DNA from: Nanobdellota archaeon | Lineage (GTDB): Archaea > Nanobdellota > Nanobdellia > Woesearchaeales > JACPBV01 | Length of the DNA: 36,984 bases | Reading direction: 5' to 3' | Assembly: GCA_027623355.1 (NCBI GenBank) | Contig: JAQBWB010000001.1 | Span: 1-36,984, forward strand | In this document: positions 1-36,984 of the stretch, piece by piece | Numbering within the stretch: the stretch's first letter is position 1 | Layout of the letters: the number at the start of each line of letters is the position of its first letter | Program-made: the position numbers and the translations under genes | Notes under the pieces: model-generated | The model's database searches: none | What the model was told of the DNA's origin: nothing | The model's input: only the letters and a program-made list of their open reading frames with translations

Positions 1-67
1 GACCCCTCGCAACGCACCTGCTTGTGAAAGGTGAAAGAATTTCGACCTTAGGATGCTATGCACATAC
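1..67 (+). mobile_element. MITE-like element, copy A (3' 67 nt only, truncated by window start)
   Basis: Matches the last 67 nt of the full copies at 4159-4327, 18854-19021 and 31862-32029. Ends with the right terminal inverted repeat atgctatgcacatac. Carries the cttgtgaaagg variant shared with copy B. Confidence 0.85.
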
Positions 68-81
68 TTAGAAAGAAAATG

Positions 82-4015: not shown

Positions 4016-4158
4016 TAGAGTTCCAGAGAATACTTATATTTTTTGTGACACTGAACCACCTGGGTGCGGTACAGGTTGCACCGATGAGTGTATGTCAGGT
4101 GGCAGTCAAGCTTGTTGTACGAAAATAAAACAATAGTTCTTAATTACTTTGTATTTTT

Positions 4159-4327
4159 GTATGTGTATAGCATAGTCACTAGCGTTCGTAGGCTGCTAAA
4201 GCAACCATCTTCGAAATTCCTGAGATTATTCCTTGAAGGTGCTGCGTCCCCGGGGGGGTCGACCCCTCGCAACGCACCTGCTTGTGAAAGGTGAAAGAAT
4301 TTCTACCTTAGGATGCTATGCACATAC
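4159..4327 (+). mobile_element. MITE-like element, copy B (full length, 169 nt)
   Basis: TIRs gtatgtgtatagcat / atgctatgcacatac, with one G-T position. Flanked by a perfect 8-bp direct duplication gtattttt (4151-4158 and 4328-4335). Lies between the convergent 3' ends of ORF 2870 and proS. Confidence 0.9.
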
Positions 4328-4359
4328 GTATTTTTTTGCTTTTTTATTTGGGGTGTTAT

Positions 4360-7455: not shown

Positions 7456-9398
7456 GTAAACCACTTGAGATGAGCAAGGTTACGCTTTTTGCTCTGCAGA
7501 AAGAGAGGAGTTCTTTATTAAGCGAGATTCAGTCCTTAGGAGTATTGCAACCGGTTGAGATTAAGCGCGATGCAGTCGAGGAATTAGAGAAACCTAAACA
7601 GATTACCTCGATAAAGGAGGTTGCCGATACATTGATTGGTGTCTCTCGAATGGTTCGTATTTTGAAGTTGGCTCCTAGAAAAACTGACATGGTTCAAAAT
7701 GTTTTGGGCTTAGAATTATTAGACAAAAGAAAGGTTGAGAGGAAAAATGATGCTGAAGTTATCAAAGGTGCTCAAACATTTTTAGAGGCCCATGAAACTT
7801 CATTAATTACGCTTGAGATCGAATATACTACTCTTGTTGAGGAGGAAGATGAGTTGAATACTCATAAACAAGTTATTGAACAGCTTTCTGCTTTAGGCGT
7901 TCCGTTATCTGAACTTGCGGATACGGACAAACTGGGCATTCTTATTGCTCGAGTTCCCGTTGAACAGGCTGCAGTTCTTAGGACTGCCTTGGAATCGAAA
8001 AAGACGGTTGCATTTGAGATGAATGCACTTTCTAAAAAGGAATATATAGTTACCCTTATTTCTTTACAGCGATTATTACTTGATTCCACTACTTTATTGA
8101 AACAGCAGGGGGCTTCAATTCTTAGCTTACCTACATGGGCTTTAAAGGAGCATCCCGGTAGGTACATTAAGTCTCAATTGACCGAGGTTAGCGATAAGAA
8201 AAAGGCAGTTATTGAAAGAATCGCTAAACATGCTAAGTCGCTATTCGAGGATGCCGTTATTTTTAGAGAGGAGTTGGAGATTGTTAAGAATAGATTGGAA
8301 ACGGTGCATAAGATGCTTGATTCTTCTAGCTTTTTTGTGATGCAGGGATGGATTGCTACTAAAGACGCAAATCATTTTGAGGAGAAGATAACGAAAAAGA
8401 TTGATGCGGTTAGTGTGCTTGTGGAGGAACCTTCTAAGGATGATGTTGTGCCAGTAGCATTACAAAACAGGAAATCTTTGAAACCGTTTGAGATGCTTAC
8501 AGAACTTTATGCATTGCCAAAATATGGTGATTTAGATCCTACTTTTATTGTTGGTCCTTTATTCTTGATTTTTGCAGCATTCATGTTGACGGATGCAGTG
8601 TATGGATTAGGACTCGTATTACTTGGAGCCATTATTCTAAAGAAATTTGCAAAATATGATGAAGGATTGAAGCAGATTGGTATTATTATTGCTGGAATGG
8701 GTAGTTTGACTGTTTTATTCGGGGTATTAACCGGATCGTACTTTGGTGATTTACCTAAGTATTTCTTTGGTGTATCGTCTGAACAGCTTGCATTTTGGAA
8801 AGATCCTCTTGCTGATCCGTTGTATTTTCTGATTTTATCTATTTCGGTTGCGATCCTTTACTTGAACATTGGTTTCGTTCTTGGTATGATGGAGGATTTG
8901 CGCAAGAAGGATTACAAAACGATGGTTAAGGACAGAATATTATGGTTTTTGTTGCAAATTGGTATTGCTTTGCTTGTTTTGAAGTTTAATCCTCCTCTTT
9001 TATTTGGTGTGGGTTTAGCTACCTTGATTATTGCTGCTGCGGTGATTGGAATAGTTGTGATGCATGGTCCGCTTGGTTTACTAGGAATCTCTGGATTAAT
9101 GGGCGATATGATATCGTTTTCTAGATTATTTGCGTTGTCGTTATCAACAGCAGGCATTGCACTTGCGGTTAACTTGCTTGCTAACTTAGTAAGTGAGGTT
9201 CCTTATGTGGGTTTATTACTAGCCGTACTTATCTTTTTGATTGGTCACGCATTTGGTTTTGTTATGAACTCTATTGGAAGTTTTGTACACGCGTTACGAT
9301 TGCAATTTGTTGAATTTTTCGGTAGATTTTATGAGGGTGGCGGAGATAAATTTTCGCCACTAAAAGAGGAACGCTTCTATTCGGAGGTCGAGGAATGA
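7452..9398 (+). CDS. atpI: A-type ATP synthase subunit I (stator a-subunit homolog)
   Basis: 648 aa with a soluble N-terminal half and a polytopic C-terminal half that includes the conserved Arg region (FSRLFALSLS). ATGA overlap with atpH. Confidence 0.9.
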   Translation: MSKPLEMSKVTLFALQKERSSLLSEIQSLGVLQPVEIKRDAVEELEKPKQITSIKEVADTLIGVSRMVRILKLAPRKTDMVQNVLGLELLDKRKVERKNDAEVIKGAQTFLEAHETSLITLEIEYTTLVEEEDELNTHKQVIEQLSALGVPLSELADTDKLGILIARVPVEQAAVLRTALESKKTVAFEMNALSKKEYIVTLISLQRLLLDSTTLLKQQGASILSLPTWALKEHPGRYIKSQLTEVSDKKKAVIERIAKHAKSLFEDAVIFREELEIVKNRLETVHKMLDSSSFFVMQGWIATKDANHFEEKITKKIDAVSVLVEEPSKDDVVPVALQNRKSLKPFEMLTELYALPKYGDLDPTFIVGPLFLIFAAFMLTDAVYGLGLVLLGAIILKKFAKYDEGLKQIGIIIAGMGSLTVLFGVLTGSYFGDLPKYFFGVSSEQLAFWKDPLADPLYFLILSISVAILYLNIGFVLGMMEDLRKKDYKTMVKDRILWFLLQIGIALLVLKFNPPLLFGVGLATLIIAAAVIGIVVMHGPLGLLGISGLMGDMISFSRLFALSLSTAGIALAVNLLANLVSEVPYVGLLLAVLIFLIGHAFGFVMNSIGSFVHALRLQFVEFFGRFYEGGGDKFSPLKEERFYSEVEE

Positions 9399-12300
9399 TT
9401 TTCGGTAGTGGACTTGTTGTTAGTGAAAGTATCGTTCAATCGATCTTAAGTCCGGTTTTGGATATTTCTACTACTGTTTCTACTGGAGGGGTTGCTAATG
9501 CAACTGCTACTGTACTTACTAATGCTTCGGCAGTACTTGTTGAACATAGCTCTACGTTTTTGGGTCTTGATTTTTCTGGTATTGATGGAAAATCACTTGC
9601 GATTATTGGTGCTGCTATTGCTGTTAGTGCCGCTGGTATTGCATCTGCGGTTGGAGCTGGGATTGTGGGTGCTACTGGAGCTAAGGAGGCCGCTGAGGAT
9701 CCTAAGCGCTTTTCTACTGCTTTATTGTTTCAGGCATTGCCTCAGACACAAGGTATTTATGGATTTTTGATTGCTATTCTTATTTTATTGGGTGCTGGAT
9801 TGATTGGTGCTGCTAAGGAGATTACGATTGCACAGGGACTTGGTTCGGTTGGAGCTGGATTGGCTGTTGGAATCGCTTCTGTTTCTGCTATTGGGCAGGG
9901 TCTCGCTGCATCAGCTGGTATCGGTGCTACCTCTCGTGATAAAAAGATGTTTGGTAAATCTATTCTGTTTTCAGTCTTGCCGGAGACACAGGCATTGTAT
10001 GGATTTTTGATTGCTATTTTGATACTCGTTGGCTTTGGTATGTTTGGTTCGGCTCCCGTTGACATTTCTATTGGTGCTGGTTGGGCTGCTATAGGTGCAG
10101 GTCTTGCTATTGGGATTGCAGGTATTTCTGCTATTGGGCAGGGTACTGCTGCTGCATCTGCTATTGGTGCTGTTTTAGAAAAATCAAAATCTTTTGGAAA
10201 GGCTATTATTTTTGCAGTATTACCTGAGACACAGGCATTGTATGGATTCATTATCGCTATTCTTATTTTAATTGGATTTGGTATTCTTGGTGCTGGAACA
10301 ACAACTGTTTCGTTTGGAGTTGCCTTATTTGCTATTGGTGCAGGTTTATCGGTTGGACTAGGTGCTGTTTCTGCTATTGGGCAGGGTATTGCTGCTAGTG
10401 CTGGTATTGAAGCTGTTGCTAAGAGTGATAAGTCGTTTGGAAAGGCTATTTTGTTTTCAGTCTTACCGGAAACACAGGCATTGTATGGTTTTTTGATTGC
10501 TATTTTGTTGTTAGTTGGCGCTGGCGTATTAGGTGCCGCTAAGGCAGGTATTACTACAGCTATGGGGGTTGTTGCTATTGGTGCTGGCCTTGCTGCAGGA
10601 GTTGCTGGTATTTCTGCTATTGGGCAGGGAATTGCTGCTGCATCTGGAATTTCTGTTGTTACTGCGAAACCTAAATTGTTTGGAAAAGCTATACTTTTTT
10701 CAGTCTTGCCGGAGACACAGGCATTGTATGGATTTTTGATTGCTATTCTTTTACTTGTTGGAGGCGGTATTTTGGGTGCTGCAAAAGCAGGATTATCTAT
10801 TCACGTTGGTTTAATTGCTATTGGTGCTGGTTTGGCAACTGGACTTGCTGCTGTATCTGCATTAGGTCAGGGGATTGCTGCTAGCGCGGGTATCGAAGCT
10901 GTTGGTCGAGATGAGAAGTCTTTTGGTAAGTCGATTTTATTTTCGGTTCTTCCTGAGACACAGGCATTGTATGGATTTTTGATTGCTATTTTATTATTAG
11001 TTGGAGGCGGTTTATTAGGGGCTGTTAAGACAGGATTGAACATGTCTGTTGGCTTGATTGCTATTGGTTCTGGATTGGCAACTGGACTTGCTGCTGTATC
11101 TGCATTAGGTCAGGGGATTGCTGCTGCATCTGGATTGCGTGAAACTGCTAAGGATCCTAAGGCTTTTGGTAAGTCGATTTTGTTTTCAGTCTTGCCGGAG
11201 ACACAGGCATTGTATGGATTTTTGATTGCTATTTTATTATTAGTTGGTGGAGGTATCCTTGGAGGTAACTCTTCAAGTGGTTTAACCTCTGGAGTTGGTC
11301 TTGTTGGAATTGGAGCAGGTATTGCTGTTGGTTTAGCTGCAGTTTCAGCTATCGGACAGGGTATTGCTGCTGCAAGTGGTGTTAGTGCTACTGCTAAAGA
11401 TGGTAAGATGTTTGGAAAATCTATTTTGTTTTCAGTCTTGCCTGAAACTCAGGCATTGTATGGATTTTTGATTGCTGTTTTATTTATGATTGGAGGAGGA
11501 TTATTTGGTGCTGTAGAGGTTGGCATTACCACTCCGGTTGGACTTATTGTTATTGGAGCTAGCTTAGCTGTTGGGATTGCAGGTATTTCTGCTATTGGAC
11601 AGGGTATTGCTGCGGCTTCTGGAATTGATGCTGTTGCTAAAAATGAGAAGTCGTTTGGAAAGGCTATTTTGTTTTCAGTCTTGCCGGAAACACAGGCATT
11701 GTATGGATTCTTAGTTGCTATTCTTTTATTAGTTGGAGGAGGATTATTAGGAGCAGTTAAACAGGGCATTAGCTTATCTGTTGGATTGGTTGCGATTGGG
11801 GCTGGTTTATCGGCTGGACTTGCTGCTGTATCTGCATTAGGACAGGGTTTCGCTGCTTCGGCTGGATTAGCAGCTACTGCACGTAATCCTAAATCTTTTG
11901 GTAAGTCGATACTCTTTTCAGTTCTTCCTGAAACTCAGGCTTTGTATGGATTTTTGATTGCTATTTTATTATTAGTTGGTGGCGGTATCTTAGGTGCAAC
12001 AAGCACTGGATTGTCTGTAGGTATTGGTTTAGTTGCGGTTGGAGCTGGATTAGCAGTTGGATTGAGTGCGTTCTCTGCTGTTGGGCAGGGGATTGTTGCT
12101 AGTACTGCTGCGGATGTTGTTAGTAACAACGAGAAGTCTTTTGGTAAGTCGATTCTATTTTCAGTACTGCCTGAAACACAGGCATTGTATGGATTTTTGA
12201 TTGCTATTTTGTTGATTGCATCAGGTGGATTGATTGGTGCTGCAGCTGGCGAGATTCCGATGTCTATTGGTTTAGTTGCGGTTGGAGCAGGACTTTCTGT

Positions 12301-12724
12301 TGGAATTGCCGGCTTATCGGCTGTTGGACAGGGAATTGCTGCTGCTTCTGGTGTCGGATCGATTGCTGAAAAAGAGAATGTCTTTGGTAAATCTATTTTG
12401 TTTTCAGTCTTGCCGGAGACACAGGCATTGTATGGAATTATTATTGCGGTGTTATTATTAACTGGAGTCGGTTTACTAGGTACTTTGAAGACCGGCATTA
12501 CACTAGTACAGGGATTAGGGGGAGTTGGTGTAGGACTTACCATGGGACTTGCAGCAGTTAGTGCTGTGGGTCAGGGAATAGTGTCTGCTTCATCGATTGG
12601 TGGGGTGGTTAGAGACAATAAGAGTACGGGGAAGAGCTTGGTATTAAGCGTTATTCCCGAGACGTATGCAATATTTGGATTATTGATAGCAATACTTTTG
12701 CTTATTGGATTACAACTGATATAG
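9395..12724 (+). CDS. atpK: A-type ATP synthase proteolipid subunit K, 13 fused hairpins (26 predicted TM helices)
   Basis: The motif GQG...FGK(S/A)ILFSVLPETQALYGF repeats at an 81-aa period. Helix-2 carboxylates are E197, 278, 359, 440, 521, 602, 684, 765, 846, 927, 1008 and 1089. Hairpin 1 has Q117 instead. ATGA overlap with atpI. Confidence 0.9.
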   Translation: MIFGSGLVVSESIVQSILSPVLDISTTVSTGGVANATATVLTNASAVLVEHSSTFLGLDFSGIDGKSLAIIGAAIAVSAAGIASAVGAGIVGATGAKEAAEDPKRFSTALLFQALPQTQGIYGFLIAILILLGAGLIGAAKEITIAQGLGSVGAGLAVGIASVSAIGQGLAASAGIGATSRDKKMFGKSILFSVLPETQALYGFLIAILILVGFGMFGSAPVDISIGAGWAAIGAGLAIGIAGISAIGQGTAAASAIGAVLEKSKSFGKAIIFAVLPETQALYGFIIAILILIGFGILGAGTTTVSFGVALFAIGAGLSVGLGAVSAIGQGIAASAGIEAVAKSDKSFGKAILFSVLPETQALYGFLIAILLLVGAGVLGAAKAGITTAMGVVAIGAGLAAGVAGISAIGQGIAAASGISVVTAKPKLFGKAILFSVLPETQALYGFLIAILLLVGGGILGAAKAGLSIHVGLIAIGAGLATGLAAVSALGQGIAASAGIEAVGRDEKSFGKSILFSVLPETQALYGFLIAILLLVGGGLLGAVKTGLNMSVGLIAIGSGLATGLAAVSALGQGIAAASGLRETAKDPKAFGKSILFSVLPETQALYGFLIAILLLVGGGILGGNSSSGLTSGVGLVGIGAGIAVGLAAVSAIGQGIAAASGVSATAKDGKMFGKSILFSVLPETQALYGFLIAVLFMIGGGLFGAVEVGITTPVGLIVIGASLAVGIAGISAIGQGIAAASGIDAVAKNEKSFGKAILFSVLPETQALYGFLVAILLLVGGGLLGAVKQGISLSVGLVAIGAGLSAGLAAVSALGQGFAASAGLAATARNPKSFGKSILFSVLPETQALYGFLIAILLLVGGGILGATSTGLSVGIGLVAVGAGLAVGLSAFSAVGQGIVASTAADVVSNNEKSFGKSILFSVLPETQALYGFLIAILLIASGGLIGAAAGEIPMSIGLVAVGAGLSVGIAGLSAVGQGIAAASGVGSIAEKENVFGKSILFSVLPETQALYGIIIAVLLLTGVGLLGTLKTGITLVQGLGGVGVGLTMGLAAVSAVGQGIVSASSIGGVVRDNKSTGKSLVLSVIPETYAIFGLLIAILLLIGLQLI
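9587..12721 (+). repeat. 13 in-frame tandem units of about 243 nt, one proteolipid hairpin each
   Basis: Regular 80-82 codon spacing of the PET motif. Several units share identical stretches of 40 nt or more, such as ttttcagtcttgccggagacacaggcattgtatggatttttgattgctatt. Confidence 0.9.
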
Positions 12725-14319: not shown

Positions 14320-14450
14320 ATGGAAATATCACTCAATGGGCATCTTCGAAATCCAGATTGTCTATTTGAAGGCTCTGTGGCCCGGATGGCACAACCCCTA
14401 CGACGAGCTGGCAGTCATTCATTGAAGGATTTCGACTTTAGGATGCTTGA
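14320..14450 (+). repeat. MITE-related structured intercistronic element, copy F (no TIRs)
   Basis: Shares catcttcgaaat..., cccgga.gg....acccc and atttcgac.ttaggatgct blocks with the MITE core. Helices 14346-14354/14427-14435, 14371-14375/14405-14409 and 14376-14379/14399-14402 are maintained. It also forms a 51-codon ORF, 14320-14475. Confidence 0.7.
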
Positions 14451-14465
14451 TTGGGAGATGATATC

Positions 14466-14759
14466 ATGGAAATAGGAATACTCGCGGATCAGGATACCTT
14501 GATGGGCTTTAGGGTAGCGGGAGTTACGCGAAGTGTGTTGTTTGATCTTGAAACGTTGAAGGAGGATTTGAAACAGCTGGATGATGTTGCTATTTTATTG
14601 GTTACTGAAAAAATAGGAATAGAAATTAGAAAATTAGATGTTACGATTTCACCTGTATTAGTTGGTGTACCTGATAAAGGTGGAAGTACAGGGAATGCGT
14701 TATTAGAGATTGCTAAACTTTACGAAGAGGCAATCGGTGTAAAACTCAAGGAAAAATAG
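14466..14759 (+). CDS. atpF: A-type ATP synthase subunit F
   Basis: MEIGILADQDTLMGFRVAGV is a typical F-subunit N-terminus. ATG 14466 is preferred over TTG 14451. Confidence 0.85.
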   Translation: MEIGILADQDTLMGFRVAGVTRSVLFDLETLKEDLKQLDDVAILLVTEKIGIEIRKLDVTISPVLVGVPDKGGSTGNALLEIAKLYEEAIGVKLKEK

Positions 14760-14771
14760 GAGGGATATGAT

Positions 14772-16532
14772 ATGGTAGAAGGAATAATTATTAAAATTTC
14801 AGGACCGGTTGTAGTCGCTAAAGACATGGCAGGTGTAAAGATGTATGAGGTGGTTAGAGTCGGTAACGAAGGCCTTATTGGCGAAGTTATTGAGCTCTTT
14901 AAAGATAGGGCTACGATCCAGGTCTATGAGGAGACTTCAGGTATGCAGCCAGGCGAGAAAGTTGTTTCGCAGGGTCAGTCGTTGTCTGTTGAATTAGGAC
15001 CGGGTATCATGGGTAATATCTATGATGGTATTATGAGACCGTTGAAACAGATTCAGAAAAAATCTGGTGCGTTCATGGCTCGTGGAATTGATGCTGATGC
15101 AATTGACCACAAGAAGAAGTGGAAGTTTGTGCCTTCGGCTAAAAAGGGTGACCAAGTTATAGGCGGACAGATTATTGGTGAGGTTGCAGAGACTTCAGCT
15201 GTTGTTCAGAAAATTATGATTCCCCCTCGAGTTTCGGGTGAAATTAAAAAAATTGTTAAGACTGGCGAGTATACAGTTACTGAGAGTATAGCTACTGTCG
15301 CTACACAGGATGGAGATGTTGAGGTACAGCTGTCACAGAAGTGGCCTGTTCGAAACCCACGTCCCGTTAAAAGTAAGGAAGAACCTACGATTCCTTTGAT
15401 TTCTGGTTTGCGTATCTTGGATACGTTTAATCCAGTTGCAAAGGGAGGTACTGCTGCTACGCCTGGTGCTTTTGGTACCGGTAAAACAGTAACTCAGCAG
15501 AGTCTTGCTAAATGGTGTAATGCAGATATTATTGTCTACATTGGCTGTGGTGAAAGAGGAAATGAGATGACGGATGTTCTTAAGACCTTTCCTGAATTGG
15601 TAGATCCACGATCTGGAAAGCCGTTACTTGAAAGAACGGTTATTATTGCTAATACCTCGAACATGCCCGTTGCCGCTAGAGAGGCTTCGGTCTACACCGG
15701 TATTACGATTGCTGAATATTTTCGAGATATGGGCTATGATGTTGCATTGATGGCTGATTCGACTTCACGATGGGCTGAAGCTATGCGTGAAATTTCATCT
15801 CGTCTAGAAGAGATGCCAGGTGAGGAGGGATACCCTGCTTATCTGTCAACTCGATTAAGTCAGTTCTATGAACGAGCTGGTCGTGTAACGCCGTTAGCTG
15901 GTGGTAATGGTTCAGTTACTATTATTGGGGCTATTAGTCCTCCCGGTGGAGACTTTTCGGAACCGGTGACACAGAATACGTTGCGTGTTAACAAAACGTT
16001 CTGGGCTTTGGATAAGAGTCTTGCTAGTAAAAGACACTTTCCAGCTATTAATTGGTTGACCTCGTATTCGTTGTATTTAGATACGGTAACGGACTGGTTT
16101 AATGAACATTCTGGTAGCGATTGGAGAGATCTTCGAGACAAGGCAATGGGATTATTGCAGAAAGAGGACCAGTTGCAGGAGATTGTGCAGTTGGTTGGTC
16201 CGGATGCACTTCCTGATAACGAGCGTGTTATTCTTGAGGTTACTAAAATGTTGCGAGAGGATTTCTTGCAGCAGAATGCGTTTCTCGAAGAAGATGCATA
16301 CTGTCCAATTGAGAAGCAGTACTTAATGCTGAAATTCATTCTTGAGTTTTATGATAGGGCTCAGGAAGCTTTGAAAAAGGGTGTTAAGACTGAGGCGATT
16401 GCTGGACTTGCTATTAAAGAAAGGATTGCTCGAATGAAAGAGGCTAAGAATGAGACATTCGGCGATCATTACAAGGAGTTGCAAGCTGAAATGAGCTCGC
16501 AGTTTTCAAAAGTTGGAGGGGATGCACAATGA
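14772..16532 (+). CDS. atpA: A-type ATP synthase catalytic subunit A
   Basis: P-loop [10 protein letters not shown], the non-homologous insertion region typical of A/V-type A subunits, and LAEYFRDMG. 586 aa, contiguous, no intein. Confidence 0.97.
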
Positions 16533-17911
16533 GTAAAGGCGTAGAGTATACTAGCATTCGTGAAATTGCAGGACCTCTTTTAATTGTAGAAGATGTAGAC
16601 GGTATTGCGTTTGGTGAACTTGTTGAAATCAAGTTAGATAATGGTGACAAACGAACTGGCCAGGTTTTAGAGGCTCGAGATGATTTAGCTGTTATTCAGG
16701 TGTTTGAAGGAACTCGTGATTTGGCAACTAAGGGTATCTCGGTGCGATTTACTGGTGAAACTATGAAGGTTGGCTTATCGAAGGATATCATTGGACGTAT
16801 CTTCAATGGAGTTGGAAAACCTATCGATGGTGGACCGGCAATTATTCCTGAGAAGCGAGTAGATGTTAATGGACTTCCCATTAATCCAACGGCGCGAGAA
16901 TTTCCGGACGAATTTATTCAAACAGGTATTTCAACAATTGATGTGATGAATACTTTGGTTAGAGGACAGAAACTGCCTATCTTTTCTGAAGCAGGATTGC
17001 CGCACAACGAGCTAGCCGCTCAGATTGCGCGTCAGGCTAAGGTGAAGGGAGATGGTGGAAACTTTGCTGTTGTATTTGCAGCTATGGGAATTACGTTCGA
17101 GGAAAGTCAGTTTTTCATGAAGGACTTTGAAAGAACTGGAGCCATTGAAAATATGGTTGCTTTCATTAACTTAGCAGATGATCCAGCAATTGAGCGTATC
17201 ATTACGCCTAGAATTGCTTTATCGGCTGCTGAGTATCTTGCGTTTGAACACGATATGCATATTCTGGTTATCTTAACGGATATGACCAATTATTGTGAAG
17301 CATTGCGAGAGATTGCAGCAGCTCGAAACGAGATTCCTGGAAGACGAGGATATCCGGGATACATGTATACAGATCTTGCTATGAATTACGAACGTGCAGG
17401 TAAAATCAAGGGTAAAAAAGGATCTGTAACTCAGATTCCTATCTTGACGATGCCGCAGGGAGATATTTCTCACCCGATTCCGGACTTGACGGGATATATT
17501 ACTGAAGGGCAGATTGTTCTCTCCAAGGAACTTCATACCAAAGGTATCTATCCTCCGATTAATCCGTTGCCCTCTTTATCACGTTTGATGAATGAGGGTA
17601 TTGGTAAAGGTAAGACACGAGATGACCACGCAGGTGTATCGAACCAGCTGTATACGGTGTATGCAGAGGGAAGCGAACTGCGTGATTTGGTTGCTGTTGT
17701 TGGTGAGGAAGCGTTATCGGTTCGAGATAAGCAGTTCTTGGATGGTGCTGAGGCGTTTGAGAGGACGTTTATTACGCAGTCTAAGGACGATAATAGGGAC
17801 ATTGCTGCTTCGCTTACAATTGGTTGGGATATCTTTAAGTTAATCCCGAAAACCGAGCTTAAGAAGCTCAAGCAGGAGCATATCGATAAACATTTGGGAA
17901 AAACTGAATGA
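16529..17911 (+). CDS. atpB: A-type ATP synthase subunit B
   Basis: 460 aa with motifs such as [15 protein letters not shown] and ITEGQI that are conserved in A/V-type B subunits. ATGA overlap with atpA. Confidence 0.97.
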
Positions 17912-18030
17912 ATATGAACGAGCGTCTTCGAAATCTGGAGGGTTTTCTTCAAAGCCCTGTGACCCGGATGGTGCAACCCCCACGACGGGCTAGCATACAT
18001 TCTTTGCAGGATTTCGAACTCAGGACGCTT
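17912..18030 (+). repeat. MITE-related structured intercistronic element, copy G (no TIRs)
   Basis: cgtcttcgaaatc...agccc tgtg acccggatggtgcaacccc cacg ac gggct...ggatttcgaactcaggacgct. The helix layout matches copy F and the MITE core. It also forms a 45-codon ORF, 17908-18045, whose ATG overlaps the atpB stop. Confidence 0.7.
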
Positions 18031-18051
18031 GAGGTGAAGAGGTAAATAATA

Positions 18052-18675
18052 ATGGCATCAAAAATACATGCAGCAACTCGAATGGAGTTGCTTCGATTAA
18101 AGAAGAAGGCTAAGCTAGCTGCGAAAGGATTTAAATTGCTTAAGCAGAAGCGAGATGCACTTATTTCTGAGTTCTTTTCTTATATCGATAAGTTGAAGGT
18201 TATTCGTACTGAGATGGAGGATAAGTTGGCGGTTGCCTACAAATCTTTGATCTTGGCTCAGGCATTGTCTGGTGGTCCTGAAATTGAACGTGCTGCATCT
18301 GCTTCTAGTGCTGCGTACTCAATTGAATCTTCAACTAACAATATTATGGGTGTTGAGGTGCCTGCTTTCAGGGCAACTGAACTAACAACTGAGGCAGGAT
18401 ACAGTAAATTGTCGCCTTCTTTGGAATTAGATAGTGCTCGCACTAATTTTAAGGAGTCTCTTGCTATTATTATTAAGTTGGCTGGAGCTGAGGCTACGGT
18501 TCGCAAATTAGCAGCTGAGATTAAGAAAACTAAAAGAAAGGTCAATGCTTTGGAGCGTATTCTTATTCCTCGGATTAATAATGATATCACTTACATCAAG
18601 GTTCGTCTTGAGGAGTTGGAGCGAGAGAACTTTGCCAGATTGAAGGTCGTTAAAAAACGTATTGAAGTGCAATGA
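18052..18675 (+). CDS. atpD: A-type ATP synthase subunit D (central stalk)
   Basis: 207-aa coiled-coil protein with TRMELLRLKKK at the N-terminus and LEELERENFARLK at the C-terminus, both typical of the D subunit. GAGGTGAAGAGG lies upstream. Confidence 0.9.
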   Translation: MASKIHAATRMELLRLKKKAKLAAKGFKLLKQKRDALISEFFSYIDKLKVIRTEMEDKLAVAYKSLILAQALSGGPEIERAASASSAAYSIESSTNNIMGVEVPAFRATELTTEAGYSKLSPSLELDSARTNFKESLAIIIKLAGAEATVRKLAAEIKKTKRKVNALERILIPRINNDITYIKVRLEELERENFARLKVVKKRIEVQ

Positions 18676-18830
18676 TGGCAAAACCTATCCCCATTTGGCT
18701 ACGCTTTCAGAAAGATCCTGTTAAACGAGAGAGGATGTTTAAGGTTCTGTTTTTCTTGATGGTTGGAGTTAATGCGCTGATTGTTATTGGATTCTTGGTG
18801 TTTGTGTTTTTGTTGGTTAAGAGGATATAA
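18675..18830 (+). CDS. Small single-pass membrane protein (51 aa), start overlapping the atpD stop
   Basis: The ATG overlaps the atpD stop (TGATG). Sequence MAKPIPIWLRFQKDPVKRERMFKVLFFLMVGVNALIVIGFLVFVFLLVKRI has a basic N-terminus and one clear TM segment. It falls below the ORF-track size cutoff. Confidence 0.45.
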   Translation: MAKPIPIWLRFQKDPVKRERMFKVLFFLMVGVNALIVIGFLVFVFLLVKRI

Positions 18831-18853
18831 TTCCTTTTTGACTCAAATTAGGC

Positions 18854-19021
18854 GTATGTGCATAGCATAGTCACTAGCGTTCGTAGGCTGCTAAAGCAAC
18901 CATCTTCGAAATTCTCGAAACTATCCATCGAAGGTGCTGCGTCCCCGGAGGGGGCTACCCCTCGCAACGCACCTGCTTTTGAAGGTGAAAGAATTTCGAC
19001 CTTAGGATGCTATGCACATAC
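18854..19021 (+). mobile_element. MITE-like element, copy C (full length, 168 nt)
   Basis: Perfect 15-bp TIRs gtatgtgcatagcat / atgctatgcacatac. Perfect 8-bp TSD aattaggc at 18846-18853 and 19022-19029. Confidence 0.9.
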
Positions 19022-19035
19022 AATTAGGCGTAAAC

Positions 19036-23040: not shown

Positions 23041-26100
<3,060 letters not shown>

Positions 26101-31815: not shown

Positions 31816-31861
31816 GCTGGTGGAATAGAGTAGGGGGATGATGCTATGTACAACATAAAAA

Positions 31862-32029
31862 GTATGTGCATAGCATAGTCACTAGCGTTCGTAGGCTGCT
31901 AAAGCAACCATCTTCGAAATTCTCGAAACTATCCATCGAAGGTGCTGTGTCTCCGGAGGGGGCGACCCCTCGCAACGCACCTGCTTCGGAAGGTGAAAGA
32001 ATTTCGACCTTAGGATGCTATGCACATAC
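31862..32029 (+). mobile_element. MITE-like element, copy D (full length, 168 nt)
   Basis: Perfect 15-bp TIRs. The flanking 8-mers cataaaaa (31854-31861) and tataaaaa (32030-32037) match at 7 of 8 positions. It belongs to the same subfamily as copy C. Confidence 0.9.
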
Positions 32030-32045
32030 TATAAAAACAAACATA

Positions 32046-36901: not shown

Positions 36902-36915
36902 TGTTCCTAAGAAGT

Positions 36916-36984
36916 GTATGTGAATAGCATAGTCACTAGCGTTCGTAGGCTGCTAAAGCAACCATCTTCGAAATTCCTGAGATT
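36916..36984 (+). mobile_element. MITE-like element, copy E (5' 69 nt only, truncated by window end)
   Basis: gtatgtgaatagcatagtcactagcgttcgtaggctgctaaagcaaccatcttcgaaattcctgagatt matches the left part of copy B, including the cctgagatt subfamily signature. Confidence 0.85.

Follow-up and report, generated by a model that had tools for sequence, protein, structure and literature searches.

Chunjie, a MITE of Geobacter uraniireducens, sits inside operons without breaking them, as summarised in a review (PMC10969869). The insert examined here, located between atpB and atpD of an archaeal ATPase operon, resembles Chunjie-type bacterial MITEs in being small and non-coding, with inverted ends, target duplications, multiple copies, recent activity, and a position between the cistrons of an intact operon. 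However, the host here is a DPANN archaeon, and what distant genomes have in common is a conserved core, which shows covariation, and not the termini. Moreover, two copies, F and G, lie exactly on stop/start overlaps and are bridged by relay ORFs that survive later deletions. ERIC, Correia, and REP-type bacterial repeats (PMC10969869, PMC3184786) are likewise imperfect palindromes in transcribed intergenic DNA that fold in the mRNA, and they share a conservation between species that exceeds the needs of transposase binding. These repeats have no sequence or Rfam relationship to the present family, and their duplication is TA or none, compared with 8–9 bp here. The inner domain is also richer here (helices P3–P5, an AC bulge, and an invariant ACCCC), and no RNase or IHF role is known for the present family.

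Rickettsia palindromic elements are palindromic mobile repeats as well, with an open frame that is translated without destroying the host gene (PMC10969869). They are fused in frame into proteins, whereas F and G form separate intergenic mini-cistrons whose peptide is not conserved. The MJRE repeats of M. jannaschii are likewise palindromic mobile repeats within reading frames, translated without loss of the host gene. Termination-reinitiation coupling has been described at ATGA/TAATG overlaps (PMC6728339, PMC10666635), and in experiments it is almost lost at about 20 nt (PMC10666635). The same junction signals are found at both ends of the relay ORFs and at other junctions of the operon, which also encodes subunits of a heteromeric complex. 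In contrast to known coupling, the process would here pass via a meaningless cistron spanning a structured mobile element. To our knowledge, coupling through an intervening cistron of this kind has not been described for archaea.

The window, by which we mean the whole stretch of DNA analysed (36,984 nucleotides), is a 37-kb contig of a Nanoarchaeota (DPANN) MAG. The features of the operon that concern the inserts are as follows.

14320..14475, + strand: element F with a 51-codon bridging ORF at the atpC–atpF junction (core 14339–14446; covariance model 91.6 bits)
16529..17911, + strand: atpB, A-type ATPase subunit B, the upstream cistron (Pfam ATP-synt_ab, E 8.6e-78)
17908..18045, + strand: relay (bridging) ORF of G, 45 codons, read from the sequence
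17917..18045, + strand: element G, approximate full extent, with boundaries inferred by alignment with F
17919..17936, + strand: 5' strands of the G helices, closing helix P1 CGAGCGTC and P2 TCGAAATCT
17921..18028, + strand: conserved structured core of G, P1–P5 (covariance-model match 87.7 bits, E 4.8e-21)
17953..17991, + strand: inner domain of G, comprising P3, P4, the P5 hairpin, and the unpaired ACCCC
18009..18031, + strand: 3' strands of the G helices, P2 GGATTTCGA and P1 GACGCTTG
18031..18043, + strand: SD-like purine-rich tail of G, GAGGTGAAGAGGT, outside the fold and 9–21 nt 5' of the atpD ATG
18052..18675, + strand: atpD, subunit D, the downstream cistron (Pfam ATP-synt_D, E 2.3e-56)

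The two genes are kept apart by the 137-nt structured insert G (17908–18045), while the remaining operon junctions are 4-nt overlaps or abutting, with the sole exception of a 12-nt gap at atpF–atpA. The product of atpB is named V-type ATP synthase subunit B by NCBI (Nanoarchaeota MAG). The relay ORF of G begins with an ATG (17908–17910) that overlaps the atpB stop TGA (17909–17911) as ATGA, and it ends at TAA 18043–18045, followed by ATAATA and the atpD ATG at 18052, leaving a 6-nt gap; the relay ORF and atpD share one reading frame. Around G, a possible degenerate target-site duplication (ATGAATATG at 17908–17916 and ATAATAATG at 18046–18054) matches at 6 of 9 positions and is uncertain because the insertion is old. 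The operon also contains a genuine small ORF (18672–18830) that is conserved in relatives.

Within G, the outer helix agcgtc/gacgct can extend to 8 bp (17919–17926 with 18024–18031), and P2 pairs 17928–17936 with 18009–18017; the 5-nt bulge typical of the family, ACTCA (18018–18022), lies between the 3' strands of P2 and P1. P3 joins AGCCC (17953–17957) to GGGCT (17987–17991), and P4 joins TGTG (17958–17961) to CACG (17981–17984), followed by the AC bulge (17985–17986). The P5 hairpin is ACC-CGGAT-GGT, and the unpaired conserved ACCCC occupies 17976–17980. Every position that the initial annotation had given for the ATGA overlap, the TAA, and the 6-nt gap was verified, and the outer helix, P2, P3, and P4 with its AC bulge, all named there, were found. 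A GAGGTGA motif, such as precedes the ATG of other genes in the window (repeat family D17), gives context to the tail, in which AGAGGT has a predicted probability of 0.72 of being unpaired; the corresponding value for the atpD ATG is 0.80.

G represents an old insertion of a small, non-autonomous, MITE-like mobile element whose strand-specific fold is conserved. Both G and F are regarded as MITE-like because of the closing inverted repeat, the 8–9-bp target-site duplications, and the many copies of the family. Five full and two truncated copies occur in the 37-kb window, and those beyond F and G are listed here.

1..70, + strand: 3' part of a long-form copy at the contig end (D11, 97% identical to 4261–4330; 39 bits, 5'-truncated)
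4158..4330, + strand: long-form copy I (97.2 bits; duplication GTATTTTT)
18853..19024, + strand: long-form copy H, just 3' of the operon (covariance model 111.5 bits)
31861..32032, + strand: long-form copy J (104.8 bits; 96% identical to H; duplication (C/T)ATAAAAA)
36915..36984, + strand: 5' part of a long-form copy at the contig end (D7, 99% identical to 4158–4227)

The elements measure 137–173 nt and hold neither a transposase gene nor an ORF conserved in the family. The long-form copies H, I, and J carry inverted repeats of 15 bp, which are perfect in H and J, whereas the terminal repeats of F and G are imperfect, with G·U-type mismatches. Copy H is bounded by GTATGTGCATAGCAT/ATGCTATGCACATAC and an 8-bp duplication, AATTAGGC, and is missing at the corresponding place in the relative L027. 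Duplications of 8 bp accompany H, I, J, and several DPANN copies, and that of F matches at 9 of 9 positions opposite empty sites. Outside the window, the core is present in at least 23 other archaeal contigs (GTDB), mostly from Woesearchaeota/Nanoarchaeota MAGs and many with 8-bp duplications; several MAGs carry family copies on 4–5 contigs, and assemblies break at the repeat. The DPANN copies have terminal repeats GTATTTGTTTAGCATC/GATGCTAAACAAATAC. A conserved core combined with terminal repeats that differ between genomes is the opposite of what a classical DDE-type MITE shows. Neither a transposase nor an autonomous partner was detected in the window (Pfam) or in the fetched 8-kb loci, and no matching distant termini were found; a search of viral contigs with the core pattern returned no copies. 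The orientation of copies relative to the upstream gene (19 same, 13 opposite) shows no useful bias, and none of the other copies between co-directional genes is tightly flanked by both neighbours.

The fold is a property of the whole family. In the family alignment, 96% of cells are paired in the conserved fold, and double changes affect 13 of 28 pairs among 28 sequences and 20 of 28 pairs among 35 sequences, a level of covariation reached by none of 500 shuffles; slid controls were 29–52% paired. Strand specificity is indicated by a G·U:A·C ratio of 51:6. Compensatory changes within the family are richest in the inner domain, P3–P5 (7–8 of 9 pairs), and core lengths span 104–109 nt. G matches the family covariance model too well for a chance resemblance (E about 5e-21). 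Measured against the consensus structure, it has 27 of its 28 pairs in standard form, and the exception comes from a register shift in P5. Rfam 15 at gathering thresholds recognised only a tRNA in the whole window, the element being absent from it; with E up to 10 over G and H, the best match scored 20.8 bits against a cutoff of 43, and four DPANN loci gave no match. By inspection, the consensus, with a single 5-nt bulge at P1/P2 on the 3' strand only, does not conform to an archaeal bulge-helix-bulge intron, in which two 3-nt bulges on opposite strands flank a 4-bp helix at the element boundaries. Nor did a by-eye check bring up a convincing K-turn, BHB, hammerhead-like, or HDV-like motif.

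F is related to G. It is flanked by a perfect 9-bp target-site duplication, ATGGAAATA, at 14320–14328 and 14466–14474, and the corresponding empty sites of relatives hold a single copy of the target (TAATGGAGATAGG in L027, TAATGGAAATAGGAATA in L042). Its relay ORF begins at a TAG|ATG junction at the end of atpC and terminates at TAG 14473–14475, 7 nt beyond the atpF ATG (14466); in the predicted fold, the atpF SD and ATG are partly buried in the stem of F. An ATG placed at the upstream stop had been considered hard to obtain by chance, but the start codon of the F relay ORF was supplied by the duplicated target site. The suggestion that G is a mobile-element copy paralogous to F is borne out: the two align without gaps over 116 nt at 77% identity (repeat family D14; 76% over 117 nt on recount) and belong to a common family. 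A count of 16 identical, 2 synonymous, and 18 non-synonymous codons over 36 became 16, 3, and 20 over 39 upon recount. Differences fall on codon positions 1, 2, and 3 in the numbers 10, 7, and 11, with no third-position excess, and they affect 8 of 56 paired positions as compared with 18 of 52 unpaired positions. The description of many paired stem changes between F and G was overstated: when the differences are mapped to the consensus structure of the family, just 2 pairs have changed on both sides, a third lies in the shifted P5 hairpin, and 3 more stem changes are one-sided and wobble-compatible.

The initial annotation had placed the constraint on nucleic-acid structure rather than on a protein, and the family covariation and the lack of third-position bias agree with this. 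It had also taken the F–G covariation as support for a function in the operon; this does not follow, as the covariation is family-wide and most copies occupy ordinary intergenic DNA, in one orientation or the other. The structural constraint seen between F and G thus belongs to the element family. It probably serves the propagation of the element itself, or its RNA, and need not benefit the ATPase. A bolder extension, which we offer tentatively and think unlikely, is that the core of about 108 nt belongs to a so far undescribed class of functional RNA, strand-specific in nature, and that this RNA is what defines a mobile lineage in DPANN and some other archaea. Mobility or persistence would then depend on the RNA fold (e.g., as a ribozyme or as RNA bound by a mobilising enzyme) and not on transposase-binding termini. 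Upon landing on an essential stop/start overlap, such an element would give rise to a relay cistron that the host may shorten but never cleanly remove, and dependence would ratchet.

Relatives of the window record the history of the atpB–atpD junction. In the sister clade (AtpB 82–84% identical) the two genes are spaced by −1 to +4 nt and the site is empty. L044 has a 177-nt spacer that holds a full element (50 bits), L025 and L042 have a 45-nt remnant, and L026 and L027 have a 50-nt remnant. As such, the element is intact in two of the four lineages of the clade and largely deleted in the other two, where about two thirds of it is gone, including one strand of every helix. These arrangements show that the element entered a tight atpB/atpD stop/start overlap in the common ancestor of a small marine clade of Nanoarchaeota. 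Insertion of F, which the nearest relatives lack, came later and independently, when a member of the same short subfamily entered the atpC/atpF overlap. The inner helices of the L044 element are of a different family subtype, which leaves it uncertain whether the entire element, and not just its flanks, is orthologous. Across the lineages that retain the element or a remnant at the junction, identity at third codon positions is only about 61%. A 23-nt block in the 5' part of G, AGCGTCTTCGAAATCTGGAGGG, is nevertheless identical at 22 of 23 positions between the window and the L025/L042 remnant, and the 9 nt upstream of it are scrambled. This block and the persistence of intact folds in two deep lineages accord with host-level constraint more than with mere tolerance, and such a constraint may act on the element at this junction.

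The bridging ORF has no conserved protein product. The G peptide matched only itself among 5.8 billion proteins, and there is no synonymous excess. Only 7 of 28 family copies (25%) are open in the F/G frame, and family indels are not multiples of three. The relay peptide of L044 shows likeness only in the stretches encoded by P1 and P2, and the remnant relay ORFs encode just 14–16 residues. Despite this, all five junction variants, from four lineages, hold an ORF that opens at the upstream stop and closes no more than 10 nt from the downstream start, and coupling-type ends (an overlap or a few nt at both ends) are found in F, G, L025, L027, and L044. Shuffled G spacers yield such a relay ORF in 2% of trials, and the shuffle probabilities for the five variants are 0.02, 0.013, 0.13, 0.18, and 0.08, which are post hoc values for variants that share ancestry where derived from G. 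The presence of the relay frame in all five variants supports the idea that the frame was kept open for the passage of ribosomes, as had been proposed, and the frame probably carries ribosomes over the insert.

It is possible to outline how this would operate. Both F and G are in sense orientation within the operon, no oligo-T terminator is present within either, each appears from its sequence to end in an exposed purine-rich SD-like tail, and an ORF bridges each of them from the stop of the upstream gene to the start of the downstream gene. With these properties, ribosomes could be relayed from atpB to atpD. Ribosomes leaving atpB would reinitiate at the ATGA, melt the hairpin while making a meaningless peptide, and then, having terminated beside the start codon of atpD, initiate anew on that gene. 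Selection would maintain an open relay frame with its two ends in place, whatever the amino acids encoded, and once the ancestral overlap had been destroyed, the only surviving deletions would be those that rebuild a relay. We consider it likely that the account as a whole, that is, an old mobile copy G, a fold conserved at the family level, and tolerance by the operon through a relay ORF, is correct.

Domestication inside the operon, as initially proposed, is not supported, since F is missing in the nearest relatives and G is mostly deleted in two of four lineages. In its explicit form, a host-recruited cis-regulatory RNA under purifying selection would set the AtpB:AtpD (or AtpC:AtpF) translation ratio, process or stabilise the polycistronic mRNA, or bind a protein. 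An element or remnant does persist at the junction in all four lineages, the fold is intact in two deep ones at about 61% third-position identity, the AGCGTCTTCGAAATCTGGAGGG block stands out beside scrambled sequence, and G has essentially no broken pairs. However, the two deleted lineages lost a strand of every helix and kept the relay ORF alone, the fold is equally conserved in unrelated intergenic copies of both orientations, and concerted evolution with other copies could keep G fresh-looking. We therefore hold this explanation to be unlikely. The near absence of broken pairs also bears on the opposite view, in which G is a decaying selfish insert free of host constraint and the open frames are a coincidence combined with an inherited, duplicated start codon, because 137 neutral nt at such divergence should show many. 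This neutral reading agrees with the 25% of family copies that are stop-free in any case, with the origin of the F ATG, with short remnants that are open by chance in 13–18% of shuffles, and with the relatedness, hence non-independence, of F and G. It is very unlikely nonetheless, as the relay occurs in five of five variants, with the two long ones at about 1–2% each, and a 137-nt hairpin amid otherwise overlapping cistrons should abolish coupling (PMC10666635).

A role for the basic peptides of 45 and 51 residues as new ATPase-associated subunits, or as factors in assembly, is highly improbable and already close to refuted. The coupling-type starts and stops, the pattern V.RM.QP.RRA..HSL.DF..R.L common to the F and G peptides, and the true small ORF conserved elsewhere in the operon (18672–18830) could suggest a protein. 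However, the residues common to F and G fall on conserved RNA positions, the L044 peptide is unrelated save where RNA helices are conserved, and the 3 synonymous against 20 non-synonymous codons, the lack of homologues, the 14–16-residue remnants, and the frame-breaking indels all oppose it.

The junction provides a natural evolutionary series that leads from an empty site through a full insert to two different deletion remnants, and it illustrates how a gene-dense, reduced archaeal genome tolerates selfish DNA in an essential, translationally coupled operon. If the relay is real, selection can keep an ORF open and its ends in place without regard to its sequence, a point that matters for how small ORFs in metagenomes are annotated. 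The natural variants also make the distance rule for archaeal termination-reinitiation testable. The core, as a covarying RNA motif that is absent from Rfam and spread over many DPANN genomes, is a candidate for experiments on mobilisation and constraint.

What looked like a larger conserved RNA surrounding the core in L009, L013, L015, and L023 proved to be two family copies placed head to head within a further inverted repeat; this double element, considered as RNase P, SRP, or another known RNA, matched no known RNA. A 704-aa protein, the best match to AtpB (P0002), raised the possibility of a fusion spanning the insert; it proved to be an AtpB with an internal duplication, encoded on an unrelated short contig, and is probably an assembly artefact.

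Element G, the structured insert at the atpB-atpD junction, belongs to a hitherto uncatalogued family of MITE-like elements whose RNA core shows covariation, and sequence comparison suggests that it was most likely made harmless at this site by a relay ORF, a frame bridging the upstream stop and the downstream start. The junction is organized as follows:

16529-17911, + strand: atpB (Pfam ATP-synt_ab), stop TGA at 17909-17911
17908-18045, + strand: 45-codon small ORF of G, from an ATG at 17908 (ATGA overlap with the atpB stop) to TAA at 18043-18045
18052-18675, + strand: atpD (Pfam ATP-synt_D), its ATG preceded by ATAATA after the TAA of the G ORF

The small ORF and atpD share the same reading phase. 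Every helix listed for G in the initial annotation, as well as the overlapping ATG and the TAA ahead of atpD, was found in the sequence; the observation as a whole was confirmed and its interpretation was supported in part. The + strand of G folds at -43.1 kcal/mol (z = -2.6), and the reverse strand more weakly (z = -0.9). G aligns without gaps to F, the paralogous insert at the atpC-atpF junction of the same A-type ATPase operon, with 76-77% identity. The proposed covariation between the two holds for two to three fully compensatory pair changes, although this pair by itself is weak evidence.

The core common to G and F (~108 nt, helices P1-P5, closed by P1) also occurs in three further full copies in the window (H, I, and J), each with a 35-nt 5' extension. 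The family copies are as follows:

1-70, + strand: truncated copy at one window end
4158-4330, + strand: copy I, full, long form
14329-14465, + strand: F
17917-18045, + strand: G
18853-19024, + strand: copy H, full, long form, directly 3' of the ATPase operon
31861-32032, + strand: copy J, full, long form
36915-36984, + strand: truncated copy at the other window end

Truncated copies occupy both window ends, evidently because assembly of the contig stopped at the repeat, and another assembly of this operon likewise terminates at H. Copies H, I, and J carry 15-bp terminal inverted repeats (GTATGTGCATAGCAT...ATGCTATGCACATAC), which are perfect in H and J, and are flanked by 8-bp direct repeats (AATTAGGC, GTATTTTT, and (C/T)ATAAAAA), while a perfect 9-bp repeat (ATGGAAATA, 14320-14328 and 14466-14474) flanks F. 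These direct repeats are target-site duplications. A covariance model trained on 28 copies picked out exactly the full copies of the window, all five on the + strand and with scores of 88-112 bits. All seven window copies lie on this strand, whereas the genes are divided about equally between the two (two-sided P ~0.016); at other loci, copy orientation relative to genes is unbiased, and it is possible that a replication-strand effect lies behind the uniform orientation in the window.

A loose pattern search of GTDB species representatives yielded 23 contigs with the core, mainly Woesearchaeota or Nanoarchaeota MAGs with a few labelled Methanosarcinales, and the covariance model added six copies outside the reach of the pattern. 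The typical layout is GTATTTGTTTAGCATC-core-GATGCTAAACAAATAC plus an 8-bp duplication. No Rfam family resembles the core, and the viral contigs searched contained no copies. In a published census, a Woesearchaeal genome ranks with the archaeal genomes of highest MITE density (PMC11602168). Four MAGs (L009:4300-4700, L013:1709-2046, L015:786-1027, and L023:1254-1520) contain a composite of ~310-330 nt around the core, with two head-to-head family copies enclosed by another inverted repeat (GTAATACTTCAGC...GCTGAAGTATTAC) and a multi-armed fold; one insertion may be nested in another, or the composite may form a separate subfamily of larger size. Each P2 arm of the family consensus contains the palindrome TTCGAA (e.g., window 17928-17933 and 18012-18017), which might be a nuclease or methylase recognition site.

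Standard pairs fill 96.1% of cells in the 28-sequence alignment, for which P1 and P2 were fixed by the search pattern, and 13 of the 28 pairs show changes on both sides (69 cells). None of 500 shuffles attained any of these pairing or covariation measures, and sliding the partners lowered pairing to 29-52%. When the model-only copies were added, compensatory changes appeared in P1 and P2 also (20 of 28 pairs in total), in an alignment that is fitted to the model and leans towards the structure. The excess of G·U pairs over A·C mismatches (51 vs 6) indicates that the selected molecule is one strand of the core, either as RNA or as single-stranded DNA. Between genomes the core is conserved and the closing inverted repeat differs, and such a pattern would not be expected from a transposase reading the termini alone.

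The initial annotation had argued from F-G codon differences against protein constraint. A recount over 39 codons altered the tally (16 identical, 3 synonymous, and 20 non-synonymous) and bore out this pattern, and the differences fall at codon positions 1, 2, and 3 in the numbers 10, 7, and 11, with no third-position bias. Core length varies from 104 to 109 nt across family copies, so the reading frame shifts within the family, and the F/G frame is free of stops in only 7 of 28 copies. The G peptide had no homologue besides itself among 5.8 billion proteins, and the peptide of the related locus L044 resembles it solely at the stretches encoding P1 and P2. On these comparisons, the bridging ORF is not a protein gene. 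The ATG at the upstream stop, previously regarded as puzzling, has a simple origin at F: target duplication copied the atpF start, and the upstream copy serves as the start codon of the F ORF.

Relatives were located via AtpD and AtpB. Within a sister clade (82-84% identity to the window AtpB and 62-69% to AtpD), most atpB-atpD junctions are empty and tight, with a spacing of -1 to +4 nt (e.g., caaTAATGGCATC and gcaTAAgaacATG), and atpC-atpF junctions are tight too; at the most distant locus (L031, AtpD 62%) the atpB-atpD spacer is longer and lacks the element, and the family was not found in 46 kb of sister-clade loci. The window clade comprises three deep lineages (AtpB 93-94% identical, third codon positions 0.60-0.62 identical), and every member has an occupied atpB-atpD junction:

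Window: G
L044, 1519-1696: 177-nt spacer with a full element at 50 bits
L025/L042: 45 nt retained, the first 22 nt of G and then new sequence
L026/L027: 50 nt retained, consistent with loss of the stretch from the TTCGAA of one P2 arm to that of the other

In the L044 element the P5 loop is expanded by 36 nt, and P3/P4 belong to the other family subtype (GACAT...TGTC); gene conversion could have replaced the element, or compensatory evolution could have acted on it in place. The flanks are common: GAATGA stands on the left, and on the right both the window and L044 have AGGTAA, 6 nt, and ATG. A single ancestral insertion in the window clade is thus the simplest reading. F is missing from L027 and L042, where the target is uninterrupted (TAATGGAGATAGG and TAATGGAAATAGGAATA); F therefore inserted afterwards and in the window lineage alone.

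G landed on a stop/start overlap, an arrangement enriched among subunits of heteromeric complexes (PMC6728339). The remaining operon junctions are 4-nt overlaps or abutting, except for a 12-nt atpF-atpA gap. Termination-reinitiation coupling is nearly lost at ~20 nt in Haloferax and E. coli (PMC10666635), so a hairpin of 137 nt would uncouple the genes if ribosomes were not carried across it. All five junction variants have an ORF running from at or on the upstream stop to no more than 10 nt from the downstream start. Shuffling the spacers with their ends kept, a post hoc test on variants that are not fully independent, gave such frames at the following frequencies:

G: 45 codons, 0.020
L044: 56 codons, 0.013
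L025/L042: 14 codons, 0.13
L026/L027: 16 codons, 0.18
F: 51 codons, 0.08

Despite this non-independence, each deletion would have had to recreate the relay frame. Ribosomes carried over the structured insert via the relay ORF would keep coupling to the downstream gene and neutralize the harm; that the open frames are kept for ribosome passage is the best-supported part of the earlier interpretation, as judged from sequence. Neither F nor G contains T-runs longer than 4, and a purine-rich SD-like tail forms the 3' end of each. Structure prediction leaves the tail of G and the atpD ATG exposed; the SD and ATG of F are predicted to be partly buried in a stem, so a melting ribosome would be more useful there.

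To the initial annotation, the insert looked domesticated. Adaptive recruitment by the host seems unlikely to us, as the fold is a property of the whole family, F is young, and the bulk of G was discarded in two lineages. However, the junction has never reverted to the empty state, the folds are intact in two lineages so diverged that a neutral 137-nt sequence should hold many broken pairs, and of the 23 nt in one block (AGCGTCTTCGAAATCTGGAGGG), 22 are shared by the window and L025/L042 with the preceding 9 nt scrambled; these points favor recruitment or are at least unexplained. Concerted evolution with other copies, recent deletions, or host constraint could account for them. We favor a ratchet reading of the junction history, in which only relay-keeping variants would have survived once the overlap was destroyed. 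Bacteria and a few archaea are known to have mobile repeats within operons and palindromic repeats that are translated (PMC10969869); new variations here are the DPANN host, the conservation of the core and not of the termini, and, at the G junction, a series from insertion to remnants in which a relay is preserved.

Several other features of the operon and window were observed. The top AtpB match, P0002 (704 aa, 2.5-kb contig), has a ~240-residue internal AtpB duplication that is most likely an assembly artefact unrelated to the insert. The proteolipid (K/c) subunit gene (9395-12724, + strand) encodes one 1109-aa polypeptide with 13 Pfam ATP-synt_C matches and consists of tandem 243-nt units sharing 62-76% identity; it is similarly giant in relatives (1106 and 1064 aa), with a 237-aa version in L047. 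To our knowledge, a whole c-ring as a single polypeptide is otherwise known from Methanopyrus. A 52-aa hydrophobic ORF (18672-18830, + strand) with an ATGA overlap with the atpD stop is conserved at 51 aa in both L027 and L042, and Pfam gave no match to it. Probably it is a genuine component of the operon that has escaped annotation, either a small membrane subunit or an assembly factor. An intein (Pfam Intein_splicing, residues 491-794) is present in gyrB (23041-26034, - strand), and the 1110-aa atpA product of relative L045 also has one, which includes a LAGLIDADG domain. A 15-nt tandem repeat (TTGGTTCTTTAGATG, ~6-7 units) spans 25845-25964, close to the 5' end of the opposite-strand gyrB frame.
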